Shown one piece after another: positions 3,981-30,869 of a stretch of DNA of 64,000 nucleotides. Each line of letters begins with the position of its first letter. The first letter of the stretch is position 1. The translations under genes were made by a program, and so were the position numbers. The notes beneath the pieces are model-generated. The model was given only the letters and a program-made list of their open reading frames with translations. It did no database searches and was not told where the DNA came from. This DNA comes from Promethearchaeota archaeon (GTDB taxonomy: Archaea > Asgardarchaeota > Thorarchaeia > Thorarchaeales > Thorarchaeaceae): contig WJMJ01000123.1 of the NCBI GenBank assembly GCA_014728035.1, positions 1 to 64,000 of the forward strand. Reading direction: 5' to 3'.

Positions 3981-4531
3981 GTGATGAGTACATCAGGAAT
4001 TGATGCCAATGAGATTATCTTTCTGTTTGAACAGAGTGAGAAACAGAAATCGTTTTCTGGAATTAGAAACAAGTTCGAAGAACTTGATATTCTATTCGAA
4101 TTTAATCCTCTGAATCCTATTAGTTGGAATGCACTAGCTGTAGTCTACATCTTAACTGAACGAATCCAGCAATCAGAGGAAGTAATTTGTTATTCTTTGG
4201 AGCTGGATTCCGGAAATTATTTGACTTGGAGAATCTGGGGAAAATTGTTGCATCACATTGGAAAAAATAGAGAGGCGGAAAATGCATTCGGATGGCATAT
4301 GAACTAAATCCCTCTGATTATATCAGTCTCTATAACCTTACAAGACTAGTGATGCTCCGTAATGCCTATCCACAAGCTTTGGATTACCTTTTTTCCTTAA
4401 TAGAATTGGATTGCTCAAATCAGATATATTGGGATATGATTACTATCTGTCTTAGAGATCGTGACGAGACTTGTCTGGTCTGCGATTTGGATTCTGTTCA
4501 GTGGAATCTTAGTGAGTGTAGTTCGGAATAG
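3981..4531 (+). pseudogene. Frameshifted TPR protein
   Basis: TPR helices continue from ORF 3981-4307 (EAENAF) into ORF 4292-4531 (MAYELNPSD); adding one base near 4290 restores the frame. Confidence 0.65.
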
Positions 4532-5000
4532 TGTGGCTCAAGGTGTTCTCAGCTGACTCATAGTGGTAAAGACTAGGTGTCGTCATTCAAAGGCATCTGA
4601 CAGTCTTCTAGCTTTTTTCACGGTAGTATCAGCTTCTTTTGGTGTTGGTGTGATGCCATCAAATCTCCTTTCTTAATTATCCATGAAAGAAAAATGGTGA
4701 AGCAGAGTCTACATATATTTGGATACTCTCTTCCCTTCAAGCTCAATTTTAATGAATTCTTCCAAGTCTACCAATGATATTTCTTGAACATCTTTTTCAC
4801 AATCCAATACAAACGATTCAAAATGTGATGCATTTTCAAGACAAGATTTGATAGTATTGTCTGATTTTCTTTTCCAGAAATAACCTAAATTCATCATCCA
4901 AGAAAGTGACCTCGTTGAATGTTGTTTAGATATTCTATCATCTATCGAAATAAATGATGTTTATCACGTTGAGTAAATCGAAAGTGTAATAGATTATAAA

Positions 5001-7733: not shown

Positions 7734-9716
7734 ATGATGGCAGACTTCAAATTAGATGCACCATTCAAACCAACAGGTGATCAACCTCAAGCGATATCAA
7801 AACTGGTAGAAGGGTTGGAGTCCGGCCTTGATCGACAGACCCTATTGGGTGTTACTGGTTCCGGTAAGACCTTCACAGTTGCTAATGTTGTGGAAGCTTA
7901 CAATCGACCTACTCTTGTCATCTCTCACAATAAGACACTGGCAGCTCAACTTGCATCTGAATACAAGAGATACTTTCCTGATGCTGCTATCGAGTATTTT
8001 ACCAGCTACTATGATTACTATCAGCCTGAGGCATATGTTGCAAGTAAGGACATGTATATCGAGAAGGAAACAGATATCAATAGCGAGATAGAGAGGCTAC
8101 GTAATTCTGCCACCATGTCGTTACTGAGCCGTGAGGATGTATTGGTAGTTGCATCAGTTTCCTGTATCTATGGTCTTGGAAATCCGGAGGATTATGGAAA
8201 ACTCTCACTCTTTCTGAATCTTGGTGATACTGTCGATCGAAGAGAGATATTAGAGAAATTAGTTGCAATGCAGTATGAAAGAAACGATATGGAGATTAAA
8301 CCCGGAGTATTTCGTGTCCGCGGCGATGTAATTGATGTTATCCCAGGCTATTCACGTAGTGCATATCGAATCCAGCTTGATGGGGATAAGGTGGAAAGAC
8401 TATCCTATCATCACCCTGTGACCATGTCCCCTCAGGGGCAAGACACTTGGATTCGTATCTATCCTGCTCGGCATCATGTAACTCAACAGGAGAAAGTTCA
8501 GGATGCAATAGAACTCATTGAAAAGGAGATGTTCGAGAGGATTGAGGAGTTTAGAAATCAAGGCAAGCTGGTCGAAGCAGATAGGATTCGAAGAAGAACG
8601 CTCTACGACTTGGAGATGTTACGAGAAACTGGTTTTTGTTCTGGCATTGAGAACTATTCCCGATACATTGATGGTAGAGATGAAGGACAGAAGCCTTACA
8701 CTTTGATGGATTATTTTCCTGATGATTTCTTGATGATAATTGACGAGAGTCATATGACCATTCCTCAGATAACAGGAATGCATCATGGTGATAGAGCAAG
8801 AAAGACTAGTTTAGTTGATTTCGGATTCAGACTGCCATCTGCGTACGATAATCGGCCTCTTAACTTCGAAGAGTTCGAGAAGTACATGAAGCATGTTATT
8901 TTCACCACTGCTACTCCTGGCCCATATGAACAGAAACATAGTGCTCAAATAGTGGAACAGCTTGTTCGTCCTACCGGACTTATCGATCCGGAGATAACAC
9001 TTCGTCCTATTGAGAATCAGATTGATGACTTAATGGGAGAGATAGACATTGTAGTGAAACGAAAAGAACGCGTTCTAGTTACAACCCTCACAAAGAAGAC
9101 AGCTGAGATGCTAACAGAATATCTGGTTGAGAATGGTGTTCGAGCAAGGTATCTCCATTCGGATATCGGTACAGTTGAACGCATTGAGATTATCCGAGAC
9201 CTTCGTCTAGGTAAATTCGATGTGCTAGTTGGTATCAATCTCTTACGAGAGGGGCTGGACTTGCCTGAGGTTTCCCTTGTTGCAATATTAGATGCTGATA
9301 AAGAAGGTTTCTTACGAAGTGAATGGGCACTAATTCAGACCATGGGGAGAGCTGCAAGAAATGTACATGGACACGTCATTCTATATGCTGACCATGTTTC
9401 AAAAGCGATGCGTGCAGCTATTGATGAAACAAACCGAAGACGAGCTTACCAGATCAAATACAATAAGGAACATGGGATTACTCCTGAATCCATAAAGAAA
9501 GATGTTACAGATATCGCTCAAGGCATGCCTTCAAGAGAGGAAGAACTACAAGCTAAACTGAGTGAGTTCGAAGAATCAGAAATTGAAGAGATTCAGGATT
9601 ACATCATTGATTTAGAAGAACAGATGAAAGAAGCAGCTCGGAATCTTGAATTCGAGAAAGCTGCAACCTTACGAGACCAGATTATTGAGTTACGAAAGAA
9701 AATTGAGGTTAAATAG
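7734..9716 (+). CDS. uvrB: Excinuclease ABC subunit B
   Basis: PTGDQP, GVTGSGKT, SYYDYYQPEAY hairpin, DESH, GINLLREGLD, C-terminal UVR domain; start moved from 7662 to ATG 7734/7737. Confidence 0.97.
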   Translation: MMADFKLDAPFKPTGDQPQAISKLVEGLESGLDRQTLLGVTGSGKTFTVANVVEAYNRPTLVISHNKTLAAQLASEYKRYFPDAAIEYFTSYYDYYQPEAYVASKDMYIEKETDINSEIERLRNSATMSLLSREDVLVVASVSCIYGLGNPEDYGKLSLFLNLGDTVDRREILEKLVAMQYERNDMEIKPGVFRVRGDVIDVIPGYSRSAYRIQLDGDKVERLSYHHPVTMSPQGQDTWIRIYPARHHVTQQEKVQDAIELIEKEMFERIEEFRNQGKLVEADRIRRRTLYDLEMLRETGFCSGIENYSRYIDGRDEGQKPYTLMDYFPDDFLMIIDESHMTIPQITGMHHGDRARKTSLVDFGFRLPSAYDNRPLNFEEFEKYMKHVIFTTATPGPYEQKHSAQIVEQLVRPTGLIDPEITLRPIENQIDDLMGEIDIVVKRKERVLVTTLTKKTAEMLTEYLVENGVRARYLHSDIGTVERIEIIRDLRLGKFDVLVGINLLREGLDLPEVSLVAILDADKEGFLRSEWALIQTMGRAARNVHGHVILYADHVSKAMRAAIDETNRRRAYQIKYNKEHGITPESIKKDVTDIAQGMPSREEELQAKLSEFEESEIEEIQDYIIDLEEQMKEAARNLEFEKAATLRDQIIELRKKIEVK

Positions 9717-21572: not shown

Positions 21573-22205
21573 CTATGCCATTTTTTCATCAGAAGCGGAA
21601 TCTTCAGCATCTACTGCAAAACGTTCGCAATAATCTGCATCTCTTCTTTCTCCACGTTTTAGATGAAGACTTGCAGCGATTCGATACGCTCTTGCTACTG
21701 ATCCCCATTCCATTTTGGCATCATAACAAAGAGCAAGTGCTTTCCATGTTTCAGGTTCTTCTGAATCATATTTCAGTGCTTCATTATAAGCTTCTATCGC
21801 ATCATCGATACGTAACAAGCTCTCAAGCGATCTAGCTTTTTTAACCCAGAGGTCTGCAGATTCTGGTGCTTTTTCCAGACCACTTTCTGCAGCTGCCAGT
21901 GCATTATCGAAATCACCAACAGTAAGAAATGCCTCCGCCTTGTTTGCATAAGCTCTAGGATCATCTGGATTTGCAATGATAGCTTTGTCAAATGCTTCTA
22001 TAGCCAACATCTGATCGCCTACATGAATTTGGGTCAAACCAAGTTCGTTGAGTGCGTCAATATTGCCCGGGTCGCCTTTGAGAGCTTTCTCATAAGCTTC
22101 GATAGCTTTTTTATTTTGACCCCTCTGACGAAGAAATCTACCTTTTGATATCCATTGCTCTACAGTTTGACCATCTACTGACATACTGAAATATTCCAGT
22201 TTCAT
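21573..22205 (-). CDS. TPR protein
   Basis: Repeated A...Y/F.KAL..DP TPR units. Confidence 0.88.
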   Translation of the reverse strand: MKLEYFSMSVDGQTVEQWISKGRFLRQRGQNKKAIEAYEKALKGDPGNIDALNELGLTQIHVGDQMLAIEAFDKAIIANPDDPRAYANKAEAFLTVGDFDNALAAAESGLEKAPESADLWVKKARSLESLLRIDDAIEAYNEALKYDSEEPETWKALALCYDAKMEWGSVARAYRIAASLHLKRGERRDADYCERFAVDAEDSASDEKMA

Positions 22206-22309: not shown

Positions 22310-22831
22310 ATGGTTTCAGAGGAATACGATGACGAAGAGTTTGAAGAAGATGATACTTTTCCAGATGCTGAGGAAGATGAATTCGAAGAAATTCGAACAT
22401 ATCATCAACCGCAGGTAGATCGGTGGAAAGTATTTTTGGCGGATCCTTATCCGATAGTGACTTTCATCTTGACTATCATTGGCATTGCATTAGTTGTTCT
22501 TATGCCACCTAACATAGATTACTTCTGGAAATGGAATCTGGTAGGTTTCTATTTTCTCATTGTAATAGTAGGTGCTGGTTCAGTCATGGCTATCAAAGCA
22601 TGGAAGATGGCAGATGGCAAAATAATCCGTTACGGTGGACTGACTAATCTATTTGTTATGATTGCATCGGCTATTATTGCACTAGCTGACATCATCGTAC
22701 AGATATCTACAGGCAATTCCATTGTTCCTGGCTTTTCAGGATCTCTTATTGGCATTGCAGGAATTATTATTCTCTTTTCAGTGTACAGTCTCTGGTTGAT
22801 TCAACGAGTAGTTACATCTGAAGGCAGGTAA
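22310..22831 (+). CDS. 4-TM membrane protein with acidic N-terminus
   Basis: Acidic first 30 aa, four hydrophobic helices, SD GAGGAG. Confidence 0.75.
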   Translation: MVSEEYDDEEFEEDDTFPDAEEDEFEEIRTYHQPQVDRWKVFLADPYPIVTFILTIIGIALVVLMPPNIDYFWKWNLVGFYFLIVIVGAGSVMAIKAWKMADGKIIRYGGLTNLFVMIASAIIALADIIVQISTGNSIVPGFSGSLIGIAGIIILFSVYSLWLIQRVVTSEGR

Positions 22832-22837
22832 TTTCCT

Positions 22838-23209
22838 TTGTCGGATGAAGGTACCAGTCTTGAAGACCTACAAAGAATAATCCGAAATTTTGTTCAGGAA
22901 CGAGGCTGGGAATCTTTTCATCGTCCTACCGCTTTAGCGATTTCTGCAGCTATTGAAATTGGAGAATTGCTTGAAATTTTTCAATGGCGTACAGATAAAG
23001 AAGTAGCTGAAATTATGCGGAATCCATCTTTTCAGGAATCTGTTTCTGATGAGATTGCTGACATTATCATTTACCTGTTGCGACTAGCAGATACATTAGA
23101 AATATCACTTTCTCAAGCGATTCAGCAAAAAATGAAGAAAAACGAAACAAAATATCCTGCAAAGAAATGGGCTGGTAGAACGCCGCATCATTCACCTCCT
23201 TTTGACTAA
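22838..23209 (+). CDS. MazG-like dCTP pyrophosphatase (DCTPP1/RS21-C6 family)
   Basis: ERGWESFH.P, EIGELLEIFQW, DEIADI, KNETKYP. Confidence 0.88.
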   Translation: MSDEGTSLEDLQRIIRNFVQERGWESFHRPTALAISAAIEIGELLEIFQWRTDKEVAEIMRNPSFQESVSDEIADIIIYLLRLADTLEISLSQAIQQKMKKNETKYPAKKWAGRTPHHSPPFD

Positions 23210-24004
23210 CCTTTCATAGAGTTCAGGTGTTCTATCACGTAACACATGATTTCGCTTAGTTATCATCTTATTATCCGCTTCTTCTAGATCAATGTCATGA
23301 TAAACAATAGAAACCTCGTTTTCTCCTAATCTACAGAGAATTTCTCCTTTGGGACTGACGATTTGTGAATTTCCTGAAAAATGGAGACCACGTTCCTTAC
23401 CTATTCTATTTGCAGTTACTGCGAAAATATGATTTTCAATGCATCTTGTAATCATTGCATTTTGACAATAAGGCAATACAAGGTTGGCTGGGTGCAATAT
23501 GACTTGTGCATCCTTCAGAGCTAGAATTCTGGCAATCTCTGGAAATGCCCAATCAAAACATATCATAATTCCATAATGGTGATTGTTAAATTCCACTACC
23601 GGCGGTTCTTTACGACCCGGCTCAAACCACTCTACCTCTTGATTAAAGAGATTGACTTTTCGATATATTGTTCTAAGTTCACCATTTGCGAAAACTACTG
23701 CTGAATTATAGATAGAGGTTTCATATGCTTCACAGATTCCAGCTATTACCATTCTGTCATTTAGTGACCATTTCTTTAGAATTTGACAAAATTCGCTATT
23801 TGGCACTTCTTCTGCTACCAGTCGAACTTCTAGTCCACTTTGAAATGCATAGCCAGAATTTGCTAACTCTGGTAAAACTAGGACATCAACCTCACTTTTT
23901 GCAGCACGCTCTAACATCTCATTTGTTCGAGCAATGTTTTCCGCCTTATCTAGTAGTACTGGTTGCATCTGACCGATTCCAATTCTCACCATATTATTAC
24001 ACAT
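23192..24004 (-). CDS. Carbon-nitrogen hydrolase (nitrilase superfamily)
   Basis: LPEL, YRK, ICFD.AFPE triad motifs. Confidence 0.9.
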   Translation of the reverse strand: MCNNMVRIGIGQMQPVLLDKAENIARTNEMLERAAKSEVDVLVLPELANSGYAFQSGLEVRLVAEEVPNSEFCQILKKWSLNDRMVIAGICEAYETSIYNSAVVFANGELRTIYRKVNLFNQEVEWFEPGRKEPPVVEFNNHHYGIMICFDWAFPEIARILALKDAQVILHPANLVLPYCQNAMITRCIENHIFAVTANRIGKERGLHFSGNSQIVSPKGEILCRLGENEVSIVYHDIDLEEADNKMITKRNHVLRDRTPELYERLVKRR

Positions 24005-24096
24005 CTTTCAGATTCTTTGTGTTTCTACTACCTCTTTGCTTCTTATCCGAAAGAAAAATAACGTTTTCCTCGATACTTTTTTTGAGGTTGAAGGTC

Positions 24097-24186
24097 TTGT
24101 CGTCAGAAGAGGAATTCGATGATTATGATGATTGGCCAGAGGAATTCTGGGACGATGATGTAGAGGACGATTATGATGATTGGTGA
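24097..24186 (+). CDS. Acidic Trp-containing microprotein 1 (29 aa, MSSEEEFDDYDDWPEEFWDDDVEDDYDDW)
   Basis: SD-like GAGGT at 24084-24088, TTG start, D/E/W/Y/F-dominated frame, TGA stop; similar peptide at 25320. Confidence 0.6.
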   Translation: MSSEEEFDDYDDWPEEFWDDDVEDDYDDW

Positions 24187-25025
24187 TCAGCTGTAGTAGA
24201 TTCATCTATTTCTCTAATTTCTACCATCTCTCTCATACCTTGACGGTGCTCAGAGATTGCCCGCCTGGTTAGCAACATAATATTGTACACTTTTCGCAAT
24301 TGTTTTTCACAACTATATTTCCATACCGCTCTAATAATTTCACAAGTTGCTTTACGTTGATTATATCGTGTTGATAGACTTTGGTATCTTGCTTTCAATC
24401 TCTTAGGTGTGATTAATGGATTATCGATATCTTTCTTTAGCTTCTTGAATTTATCAATGAGCATATCTGTTTCAGTTTTTATCATGTCTTCCAATATTCT
24501 CTCAACTAGACTCTGACTCCGTGGTCCTGAAAGTTTAAGTTTCCCCCATCGTGCTACATTAGCTCCAAACTCTACCATCTTTGAAGCAAACTCCTGAGCG
24601 GTATATAATTGAGCTTTGTTTTTTGATTTGTAAATTCTTATCATTTCTTTAGATTTGAGATGTGGAAATAGTAATACTCCTGGACGAATCCGAATGCAAG
24701 GTGATCGGCGAATTAACCTTTGAGTTCTTTTTTTCTGCTGGGCTGTGGGATTTCTAAAATTGTATACTACAAGAGTATAGGTTCGTTTCAGAAGATCTTC
24801 GGTTTTTGTTATTTTAATGCTGGGAATTTCTTTTGTTCGTTTCAATGCAATGTGCGGAATGTCTTGAAAATACGGTCTATATTTTTGTGGGCTTCCAAAT
24901 ATTCTGTATACCCCTTGCACTTTTCTTTCAATTTTGTCTGTCTGAGGTATATTTAGACGCTGTTCCAATTTTCCAGCTATGACAATAACATGTACAGAAG
25001 TAGGTGCCATTTTACTCCCTGTCAT
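24171..25025 (-). CDS. Basic protein with ChrB-N/PaaX-middle/Cas2-like domain plus helical C-terminus
   Basis: TLVVYNFRNPTAQQKKRTQRLIRRSPCIRIRPGVLLFP matches the hhhYxh..R..h.R.L...G...h..SVhhhP pattern; very K/R-rich. Confidence 0.55.
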   Translation of the reverse strand: MTGSKMAPTSVHVIVIAGKLEQRLNIPQTDKIERKVQGVYRIFGSPQKYRPYFQDIPHIALKRTKEIPSIKITKTEDLLKRTYTLVVYNFRNPTAQQKKRTQRLIRRSPCIRIRPGVLLFPHLKSKEMIRIYKSKNKAQLYTAQEFASKMVEFGANVARWGKLKLSGPRSQSLVERILEDMIKTETDMLIDKFKKLKKDIDNPLITPKRLKARYQSLSTRYNQRKATCEIIRAVWKYSCEKQLRKVYNIMLLTRRAISEHRQGMREMVEIREIDESTTADHQSS

Positions 25026-25319
25026 CTACACATCTTTCTCCTATTTTATTCCTGTATTTAGTATTAATCTCGTATTATTACTTTGACTGTAAACAAAATG
25101 AAAGTGACACGGTCGAATTCTGTTATTCCGTCTATTTATTATCTTTTTGCTAATCTATTCTCATCAACTCATTGACAGGATTATGATATTGCTTTTTTAC
25201 AGATATAAAGACCCCATAATCCCTTATTACTCATTTACTGTCTATATTTGATTTATAATTCTCTAGCGTAAATTTAACTCTTATTTTACTTCTTGAATTT
25301 TTGAGGTGAAAAATCCAAA

Positions 25320-25415
25320 ATGAAACCATATCGCGACGAAGATGATTGGGAAGAAGATGACGAAGAAGATTGGGAAGATGATGATTGGGAAGATGATGAT
25401 GACGACGATTGGTAA
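25320..25415 (+). CDS. Acidic Trp-repeat microprotein 2 (31 aa, MKPYRDEDDWEEDDEEDWEDDDWEDDDDDDW)
   Basis: Strong SD GAGGTGA at 25303-25309, ATG, TAA, downstream hairpin; absent from the ORF track. Confidence 0.7.
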   Translation: MKPYRDEDDWEEDDEEDWEDDDWEDDDDDDW

Positions 25416-25444
25416 CCATTCCTAATCTCTGACCCACAATCAGA

Positions 25445-25470
25445 AACGGGTCATCTGTGAAAGACCCGTT
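25445..25470 (+). terminator. Hairpin after microprotein 2
   Basis: AACGGGTC...GACCCGTT followed by T-rich sequence. Confidence 0.5.
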
Positions 25471-29708: not shown

Positions 29709-30869
29709 TTGACAATTCAACGACTGGCGATTGCTGTAGACGCCTTAGAAAATGGGCGATTTAAGGAAGCTGTGACAATCCTTGAAGAGCTGGTCGAAAC
29801 AACTGCGGATGATCCTGATATCCTGATGTATCTTGGTATTGCTTATGTACAAAATGAACAACCAGAAGATGCACTAGACATTCTAGAAAAGGCAAAGGAC
29901 CTTGTAGAAGACCATTGTGTACTCTATTTGTTTTTGGGAAGGGCTCAGAAAGCAGTTGGGCATCTTGAAGATGCTGAACATACTCTTCGTAAAGCAATCG
30001 AGCTTGATTCTCTACAACCTGAAGCATGGGAGGACCTTGCTGGAGTATTATATGCACGCGGCAAATATGCAGAGTCTATAGCATGTATCGAAGATGCATT
30101 AGTTTACTTTCCTGAAGCGATTTCACTGAGAGCGCTAAATGCAATGGCTTACAATAGACTCGGTGACAGAACTGGTGCTCTCTGTGAGTGGGAGTATATC
30201 CATGAGTTAGCCCCCGATTCCAAGATGGGTCTTATCAACTACGCGTACACCCTTCTAATGCTTCAAAAACCACAAGATGCAGCTCCTTTTGTTCGCAAAG
30301 CAATTGAAGTTGCCCCATCAGATCATAAATCTTGGGTACTATCTACTGAATTGGCAATGCAACAAGAAAAATACAATCTTGCATTCGACAACGTTCAGAA
30401 AGCTCTTGAATTAAATAGTAAATGTACTCATGTTTTAGGACGTTATACCGTTATCAAGAACGAACTTGGAATGTCAGATTATAGTGAAACATTAGCTGAA
30501 TTTGAGAAACAAATAGCTGATCAATCCCAAAGATGGCGTGGGCTATACTATGTTTACAAACATCTTGGTATGACCGATGAAGCTATAAAATCCCTACAAG
30601 ATGGTACTAAGGAAGATTGTGATGCAGCTGCGCCATGGATAGCTTTAGCTCATGAATACGCACAAATGGGAATGGATGAAGAATCCTTGGAAGCTTGGAA
30701 AGTATCTATTCGTCTTCGAAATTATATCAAAGTTCATTGTGATGCGTGTGATAAAGACATGCGAATTCCAGCTAAAACTAGTGGTGGCAAAATTAGAATC
30801 CCAGATATTATCAAATGTAATGGGTGTGGCGAACACATTCCTCTTCCTCAAGGGCTTTCATGTTTCTAA
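29709..30869 (+). CDS. TPR protein with C-terminal zinc ribbon
   Basis: Multiple TPRs; CDAC...CNGC. Confidence 0.85.
   Translation: MTIQRLAIAVDALENGRFKEAVTILEELVETTADDPDILMYLGIAYVQNEQPEDALDILEKAKDLVEDHCVLYLFLGRAQKAVGHLEDAEHTLRKAIELDSLQPEAWEDLAGVLYARGKYAESIACIEDALVYFPEAISLRALNAMAYNRLGDRTGALCEWEYIHELAPDSKMGLINYAYTLLMLQKPQDAAPFVRKAIEVAPSDHKSWVLSTELAMQQEKYNLAFDNVQKALELNSKCTHVLGRYTVIKNELGMSDYSETLAEFEKQIADQSQRWRGLYYVYKHLGMTDEAIKSLQDGTKEDCDAAAPWIALAHEYAQMGMDEESLEAWKVSIRLRNYIKVHCDACDKDMRIPAKTSGGKIRIPDIIKCNGCGEHIPLPQGLSCF

Follow-up and report, generated by a model that had tools for sequence, protein, structure and literature searches.

A gene for a hyper-acidic, tryptophan-bearing microprotein and a gene for a strongly basic protein with a Cas2-like fold stand together in a 64,000-nucleotide (nt) stretch of Thorarchaeia DNA, and comparison of sequences gives solid support to the view that the two genes form a module kept across archaeal lineages despite rearrangement. 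The stretch, called the window throughout, is positions 1 to 64,000 of contig WJMJ01000123.1 (Promethearchaeota archaeon, assembly GCA_014728035.1) and belongs to a genome of 4.33 Mb in 173 contigs with 39.5% G+C. Two very small open reading frames (ORFs) on its plus strand, which we call Pep1 and Pep2, flank a minus-strand gene that encodes the basic protein (Table 1). A preliminary description of this locus, made from its letters alone, had put forward all three genes as a new module; the pairing of Pep2 with the basic gene is the part of that proposal that is borne out in other genomes. Annotation mostly misses microproteins of 25-35 residues; comparative genomics alone shows this family to be a conserved gene that has a fixed genomic partner in Asgard and other archaea.

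The peptide genes and their pairing with the basic gene

Both peptide ORFs translate exactly as had been described, each with a Shine-Dalgarno (SD)-like GAGGT before it and a DDW-stop at its end. Asp and Glu account for 17 of the 29 residues of Pep1 and for 22 of the 31 residues of Pep2, with three and four Trp, respectively. Codon usage in both ORFs is mixed, GAT occurring beside GAC and GAA beside GAG, as the preliminary description had noted. Tandem Repeats Finder reported imperfect repeats only in Pep2, with periods of 12, 15 and 24 (multiples of three), and none in Pep1; neither ORF is therefore a simple microsatellite. A check of the whole 4.33-Mb genome for similar peptides found Pep1 and Pep2 to be the sole free-standing ORFs of their kind.

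Relatives carry the same genes. Among homologues of the basic protein the best match, at 58% identity, is to a hypothetical protein in a Thorarchaeota metagenome-assembled genome, and the contig of that protein has both peptides in the same places; at the Pep2 position, genes of 30-36 amino acids (aa) had already been annotated by gene callers on three related contigs. When the flanks of homologues were scanned for small acidic ORFs, frame and SD proved to be conserved in relatives: in nearly all of some 50 orthologous peptide loci an ATG, GTG or TTG has an SD of the GAGGTGA type about 4-10 nt upstream. Third codon positions drift between orthologues (GAT/GAC, GAA/GAG), and the start, the Trp codons and the stop are unchanged. 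The last 17 codons of Pep1 differ from those of its orthologue at L001:6849-6953 (minus strand) by 10 changes: eight are synonymous, one is V>I and one is D>E. In the 16 nt that Pep1 shares with the basic gene, inspection of the DNA by eye shows that no difference from L001 alters either protein. The L001 orthologue also has a GAGG at a similar distance before its ATG. The peptides occur in D-rich and E-rich versions, lineage by lineage. To judge from this pattern of substitution, Pep1 and Pep2 are conserved protein-coding genes; their products are intrinsically disordered, 25-40 aa long and usually end with a free C-terminal Trp. Searches of Pfam, PADLOC and NCBIfam with the peptides gave no match, and an ESM Atlas feature search with Pep2 returned uninformative scores of 0.82-0.85.

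The same comparisons bear on whether these stretches might act as a non-coding DNA or RNA element, such as a C/D-box small RNA (sRNA), or might encode precursors of ribosomally synthesised and post-translationally modified peptides (RiPPs) that the basic protein recognises. The DNA is repeat-like, and Rfam places within Pep2 a sub-threshold match to the C/D sRNA sR52 (RF01306), at 22.1 bits where the gathering score is 50. However, the third-position drift from GAT to GAC breaks the GATGA boxes and keeps the residues, and the SD, start, Trp and stop are all maintained. With a score so far under the threshold and with GATGA strings that orthologues do not keep, the C/D-box assignment was rejected. 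As to RiPPs, no modifying enzyme is conserved nearby and no leader/core layout is visible. We consider both versions of this explanation improbable in the extreme.

The basic gene was sought in 400 Asgard genomes, and about 80 loci were scanned with a family profile and a composition filter. It was found in 86 of the 400, distributed over families f1, to which the window belongs (59 of 85 genomes), f14 (17 of 19), f4 (three of three), f28 (two of three), f30 (three of five) and f31 (one), and in none of the 135 genomes of family f22. Nearly all genomes that possess it have one copy, in conserved chromosomal synteny. The peptide gene accompanies it in every family scanned, in an arrangement that changes from one to the next. 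It is divergent and upstream in 44 of the 47 loci of f1 (two of the remaining loci lie at contig ends and the third has a 3' peptide only), and it lies downstream on the same strand in all 16 loci of f14. The three loci of f30 have two peptide genes in tandem downstream of the basic gene, both loci of f28 have a divergent peptide, and in the three loci of f4 the divergent peptide is hyper-acidic, has few Trp and ends in Glu. Metagenome contigs with homologues of 262-263 aa present the basic gene, a 27-29-aa Glu/Trp peptide ending in Trp and ABCE1, in that order and on one strand. Loci L053-L060 are provisionally placed outside Asgard, by the 'Bathyarchaeota' label of twin ESM Atlas clusters. 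In two of these the ABCE1 (RLI) gene, at L053:4761-6566 and L057:4712-6517, is directly downstream of the pair on the same strand, with genes for KEOPS Cgi121, Sua5 and a THUMP protein nearby, an order that may point to a connection with translation or to local synteny alone. A Geothermarchaeota contig has a convergent gene for a 53-aa Glu/Phe peptide beside the basic gene.

Beyond the pair, the neighbours vary by lineage, being MTAP, nitrilase and MazG in one setting, an AMP-binding enzyme and ribonucleotide reductase in another, and UPF0182 and DUF362 in a third. Each of these seven was considered as a conserved third partner and set aside as lineage-specific. Since the other neighbours differ between lineages, the pair itself is the conserved unit. 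Its two members are matched in charge: in every lineage the basic protein carries a net positive charge, and the peptides carry a strongly negative one. Only genera g1, g9 and g13 yielded peptides of the Pep1 type, which are 3'-convergent and share the core WPEE-x-W-DDD. The three-part form that had first been proposed is thus a local elaboration of the two-part module.

The basic protein and its fold

The protein encoded between the peptide genes is as rich in Lys and Arg as the preliminary description had it, with 60 Lys+Arg against 27 Asp+Glu and an isoelectric point (pI) of 10.3. An AlphaFold2 model built on 35 homologues has a predicted local distance difference test score (pLDDT) of 93 and a predicted template modelling score of 0.85. 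It divides the chain into a degenerate ferredoxin-like domain (residues ~1-78), a Cas2-like domain of the ChrB_N/PaaX_M kind (~80-166) and a three-helix bundle (167-282). The window's own protein has no Pfam match; Pfam PaaX_M ('PaaX protein central Cas2-like domain') matches two of the 35 family members, with a best E of 5.5e-8. The best PDB match by Foldseek is E. coli PaaX (8a39, E 3e-3), and in an ESM Atlas shape search residues 79-268 match ChrB_N/PaaX_M clusters with template modelling scores, by target, of 0.65-0.76. Full-length twins are present in Atlas clusters labelled Thorarchaeota and Bathyarchaeota, and the family is small, at 43 clusters among 1.8 billion representatives. By the Pfam matches of its relatives and by its fold, the basic protein is a member of the ChrB_N/PaaX_M Cas2-like superfamily, the assignment that had been made from the letters alone.

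The N-terminal part is more unusual. In the model residues 1-78 are mostly strands, which we take for a second, degenerate unit of the ferredoxin-like kind. A separate model of residues 1-172 (pLDDT 88) matches engineered tandem-ferredoxin proteins and Cas2 chains, the latter matching the core at a probability of 0.77-0.93, and the N-terminal part of the most distant homologues keeps the beta-alpha-beta-beta pattern of a second Cas2-like unit. The basic protein as modelled is a tandem ferredoxin/Cas2-like module followed by a three-helix bundle. Its best-conserved stretch is a Lys/Arg-rich helix alpha1 (QQKK..QRL..R) together with the next beta-hairpin of the Cas2-like domain. Other searches were less telling: VIA fold searches returned generic spectrin-like bundles for residues 175-282 (best Z 11.2) and generic ferredoxin/ACT matches for residues 80-165 (Z at most 6.9), and pinpointed no function in either case; a PDB profile search with the basic family gave coiled-coil noise only, and NCBIfam matches to the basic protein were at chance level.

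PaaX and ChrB (PF20229, PF20803; E. coli PaaX 8a39) share with the archaeal protein a ferredoxin/Cas2-like core that is followed by a helical bundle. They differ from it in several respects. The PaaX winged helix (PF07848) has no Pfam match in any of the 35 members, and ChrB_C (PF09828) has none either, the archaeal protein ending with its three-helix bundle at residue 284; in their place there is the second, degenerate ferredoxin-like domain at the N-terminus. The archaeal family is also far more basic, is found in archaea only and has an acidic microprotein gene alongside, and no acidic microprotein partner for PaaX or ChrB is described in the literature that we searched. The basic protein is a new, archaeal and doubly ferredoxin-like branch of the ChrB_N/PaaX_M fold.

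A Cas2-like fold and a partner of opposite charge could also describe a toxin-antitoxin-like pair, as the preliminary description had suggested, in which a toxin of the Cas2/VapD fold is neutralised by an acidic peptide antitoxin. VapD-type toxins share the Cas2-like fold, and Cas2 and VapD have as their hallmark a metal-binding Asp that is conserved where strand beta1 ends. In the alignment of the archaeal family, however, the position of the catalytic Asp of Cas2, the column that follows the beta1 Tyr, is occupied by varied residues (N, R, S, H, K and others). The gene is single-copy in nearly all genomes and lies in family-wide synteny, with no sign of mobility and apparently vertical inheritance, and transcription of the pair is divergent in most lineages. 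PADLOC returned no significant defence model, its best being AbiEi on one orthologue (E 0.015 and 0.035), and cas genes are absent among the annotated conserved neighbours, no CRISPR-repeat search having been made. The pair is thus highly improbable as a toxin and its antitoxin, and that part of the preliminary description was not borne out.

Proposed docking of the peptide on its partner and the alternatives

We propose that the module consists of a basic tandem Cas2-like protein and one or more hyper-acidic Trp microproteins, and that the peptide binds its neighbour and competes there with nucleic acid, a proposal for which we find the balance of probability to be even. On the Cas2-like domain the acidic run would follow the conserved surface that helix alpha1, rich in Lys and Arg, forms with the beta-hairpin after it; the Trp side chains, chiefly the terminal one, would be the hydrophobic anchors. 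By competing with nucleic acid the peptide would set the level of free basic protein, in the manner of an anti-repressor or of a charge chaperone. Pep1, in the window's genus, would be a second, diverged peptide of the same kind that has been added on the 3' side.

Better-known systems offer points of comparison, and for two of them, eIF3j and ObgE, solved structures show contacts of this type. DSS1/Sem1 (PF05160) is a small, acidic, disordered adaptor and DNA mimic of eukaryotes that has Trp and Phe in an acidic context and clamps basic surfaces of its partners. The archaeal peptides are likewise small, disordered and very acidic, with Trp in an acidic context; the resemblance is one of composition only, and there is no sign of homology. 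They are half the size of DSS1/Sem1, and the partner has a Cas2 fold in contrast to a PCI or OB-fold. PF05160 gave no match at E up to 10 with Pep1, Pep2 and five relatives, a weak test for short low-complexity queries. The acidic tip of bacterial SSB ends in Phe with a free carboxylate and docks in cis. The acidic tail of HMG-box proteins is also an acidic run in cis that occludes or docks on basic surfaces (PMC4207994), whereas the window peptides resemble such a tail set free as a gene of its own. In eIF3j/Hcr1, a disordered acidic stretch with a conserved Trp lies on the basic alpha1 face of the ferredoxin-like RRM of eIF3b, with Trp52 in a hydrophobic pocket beside helix alpha1 (PMC2824034). 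The geometry is the same as that proposed here; there is no sequence homology, eIF3j is larger and its motif is internal, whereas the archaeal motif makes up the whole gene product, with 3-4 repeats and a Trp-COOH end. In ObgE, a polyacidic disordered segment fills the positively charged DNA-binding groove of YbiB and blocks DNA binding by competition (PMC10123104). That segment is the tail of a GTPase and has no Trp periodicity, its partner has an unrelated fold (TrpD2), and there is no gene linkage. By analogy, then, the module resembles known pairings of an acidic disordered segment with a basic groove and differs from them in that the acidic segment is a separate, conserved micro-gene. Our searches of the literature on ChrB/PaaX/Cas2-like proteins, on acidic tails of archaeal TBPs and on acidic Trp small proteins of Asgard archaea turned up no account of the family.

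Acidic ends that close with Trp are also found outside the pair. Across 86 f1 genomes there are 160 occurrences of the pattern [DE]x4-Trp-stop, and 24 in the reversed control. By family the pattern follows the basic gene: it is present in 69 of 85 genomes of f1, in 18 of 19 of f14 and, near the control level, in 11 of 135 of f22, which lacks the basic gene; related genomes are not independent in these counts. Carriers of Trp-ended tails in f1 are two TBP paralogues, a protein that combines a coiled coil with an ArsR-type winged helix-turn-helix (wHTH), a Cys-rich Zn-ribbon-like protein and one class-V aminotransferase. A second free peptide paralogue exists in genera g11 and g12, about 3 kb away in g11.

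Several of the findings weigh against docking on the basic neighbour as the whole account. The adjacent peptides of f4 and Geothermarchaeota have few Trp or none, and none at the C-terminus, which means that a Trp anchor is not present throughout. That the basic protein binds nucleic acid is itself an assumption, made from its charge and fold only. Many of the additional pattern matches in f1 are C-terminal tails of larger proteins and not free peptides, and the presence of such tails on TBP, wHTH and Zn-ribbon proteins points to wider or other targets. Finally, an acidic Trp peptide is retained in three genomes, G313 and G315 (97-98% complete) and G323, in which the family profile did not detect the basic gene. 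The peptide is therefore not strictly dependent on this partner, and it probably has targets beyond it. In G313 the peptide gene adjoins MTAP. In favour of the linkage, the syntenic place in G348 has neither the basic gene nor its adjacent peptide, and the paralogue elsewhere is retained.

Persistence of the peptide in G313, G315 and G323 also fits the main rival. Here the basic protein, PaaX/ChrB-like, would bind DNA and regulate the peptide gene next to it, and the peptide would work elsewhere, perhaps with feedback on its regulator. The work of the peptide would be to act as a polyanionic shield or competitor for basic DNA- or RNA-binding proteins, or for a reader of Trp-ended acidic tails. 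This explanation gains from the divergent layout with a spacer of about 300 nt that contains conserved blocks, from PaaX as the best fold match in the PDB, from the same C-terminal motif on TBP and wHTH proteins, and from the free paralogue 3 kb off in g11. It is less at ease with a basic protein that has no N-terminal winged helix of the PaaX type, with the absence of any identified operator-like palindrome, and with the loci of f14, f30 and the non-Asgard contigs, where the peptide is downstream on the same strand and no promoter is shared. We hold it to be possible, well short of probable; it is compatible with peptide docking, the two not being mutually exclusive.

Another explanation would make the peptides free-standing W-acidic or DDW docking motifs for Asgard cytoskeletal or trafficking machinery (Arp2/3-like, TPR or adaptor-type receptors), next to which the basic gene is incidental. 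The composition does recall the acidic regions of WASP and cortactin and W-acidic cargo motifs, and the window has two TPR genes within 2-4 kb. Those two genes do not accompany the pair in other genera, where the annotated neighbours are not TPR proteins, and gene context lends no support to the connection with TPR or eukaryote-type receptors that the preliminary description had drawn: the basic Cas2-fold gene is the sole conserved neighbour, and TPR and other genes change between genera. The family is also found by ABCE1 on other archaeal contigs and in Geothermarchaeota, and in f22, a large Asgard family, the Trp-stop pattern stays at the level of the control. We rate this explanation as quite improbable. 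A broader conception would have acidic runs with a free C-terminal Trp as a general docking code, used in cis (TBP, wHTH and Zn-ribbon proteins) and in trans (microproteins), with the basic protein as the hub that reads it and the free peptides as competitive regulators. Such a code, which would be a counterpart or forerunner of DSS1/Sem1 or of the eIF3j motif, is a doubtful extension that we advance tentatively.

If the peptide does regulate the basic Cas2-fold protein by nucleic-acid mimicry, the pair would be a new and very small regulatory module and would provide a first entry point to the function that the orphan ChrB_N/PaaX_M fold has in archaea. It would also provide, in the archaea most closely related to eukaryotes, a prokaryotic analogue of the eukaryotic acidic-Trp linear motifs that is open to testing. 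Being so small, the pair lends itself to direct biochemistry with one synthetic peptide and one recombinant protein.

Other carriers of acidic Trp ends were seen individually. The window's genome encodes a 100-aa Cys-rich Zn-ribbon-like protein with no Pfam match (C37:139294-139593, minus strand, equivalent to L119:1295-1594) and a 285-aa coiled-coil plus ArsR/HTH_20 protein (C25:306508-307365, plus strand, equivalent to L118:1509-2366). Both have long acidic tails that close with EDW or DDW, and orthologues in other genera keep the Trp end. TBPs of genus g11, of two paralogue types, have acidic tails with Trp-stop (L065:1501-2088, L069:1320-1928, L078:900-1592 and L081:658-1263). The main TBP of the window's genome (contig C115, Pfam matches 8344-8859) ends in EGEDWD, one residue beyond the Trp.

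Layout of the window locus and nearby genes

The geometry of the locus agrees with what had been described. Pep1 is convergent with the basic gene and overlaps its 3' end by 16 nt; Pep2 is divergent from it, with a 294-nt spacer between the two starts, and has a hairpin of its own. The start of Pep1 is ambiguous, there being alternative in-frame TTGs at 24082 and 24088. Within the otherwise diverged spacer, identity with L001 allows us to infer a promoter role for the A/T-rich block, and the hairpin is likely to mark the transcript end of Pep2. A terminator scan listed no site at the hairpin, whose loop is outside the 3-8 nt limit of the scan.

Table 1. Positions of the module's genes and of putative signals in the window
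Feature	Coordinates	Strand	Remarks
Pep1 Shine-Dalgarno-like GAGGT	24084-24088	+	8 nt upstream of TTG 24097; read directly
Pep1, acidic microprotein, 29 aa	TTG 24097 to TGA ending 24186	+	3 Trp; C-terminus DDW-stop
Basic protein, 284 aa, pI 10.3	24171-25025	-	modelled as two ferredoxin/Cas2-like domains and a three-helix bundle
Promoter-like block, A/T-rich, TATA-like	25265-25280	+	40-55 nt 5' of Pep2 start; 16 nt identical to L001
Pep2 Shine-Dalgarno GAGGTGA	25303-25309	+	10 nt upstream of ATG
Pep2, hyper-acidic microprotein, 31 aa	ATG 25320 to TAA ending 25415	+	4 Trp; C-terminus DDW-stop
Hairpin, 8-bp G+C-rich stem and 10-nt loop, then T-rich tract	25445-25470	+	-15.5 kcal/mol, z -2.0

Peptide genes of this composition can be read in a second frame, as Lys/Met-rich or Lys-rich ORFs. 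The ORF at 25342-25425 (plus strand) is such an alternative frame of Pep2. At L057, a Lys-rich micro-gene of 57 aa (4493-4666, plus strand) overlaps the poly-Glu peptide in another frame and was rejected as a frame artefact; there the gene caller had preferred the Lys-rich reading to the Glu/Trp one, and spurious calls of a 'basic micro-gene' probably arise in this way.

Two TPR-repeat proteins are encoded near the module, at 21573-22205 (minus strand, 2 kb away) and at 29709-30869 (plus strand, 4.3 kb away). A 173-aa membrane protein (22310-22831, plus strand) begins with about 27 residues that are nearly all Asp or Glu with spaced aromatics (Phe, Tyr); it has a weak 8xMP match under the Pfam cut-off, and the position of its gene is kept in the two closest relatives. 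The MazG-like gene (22838-23209, plus strand) and the carbon-nitrogen hydrolase gene (23192-24004, minus strand) have a convergent 3' overlap of 18 nt (23192-23209) that is also present in relatives. By the module's usual place in G348, the ribonucleotide reductase gene (L120:2319-6533, minus strand) is about twice as long as that of G355 (L121:6297-8318, minus strand), and the splitting of its homologous blocks by two insertions suggests that these are inteins.

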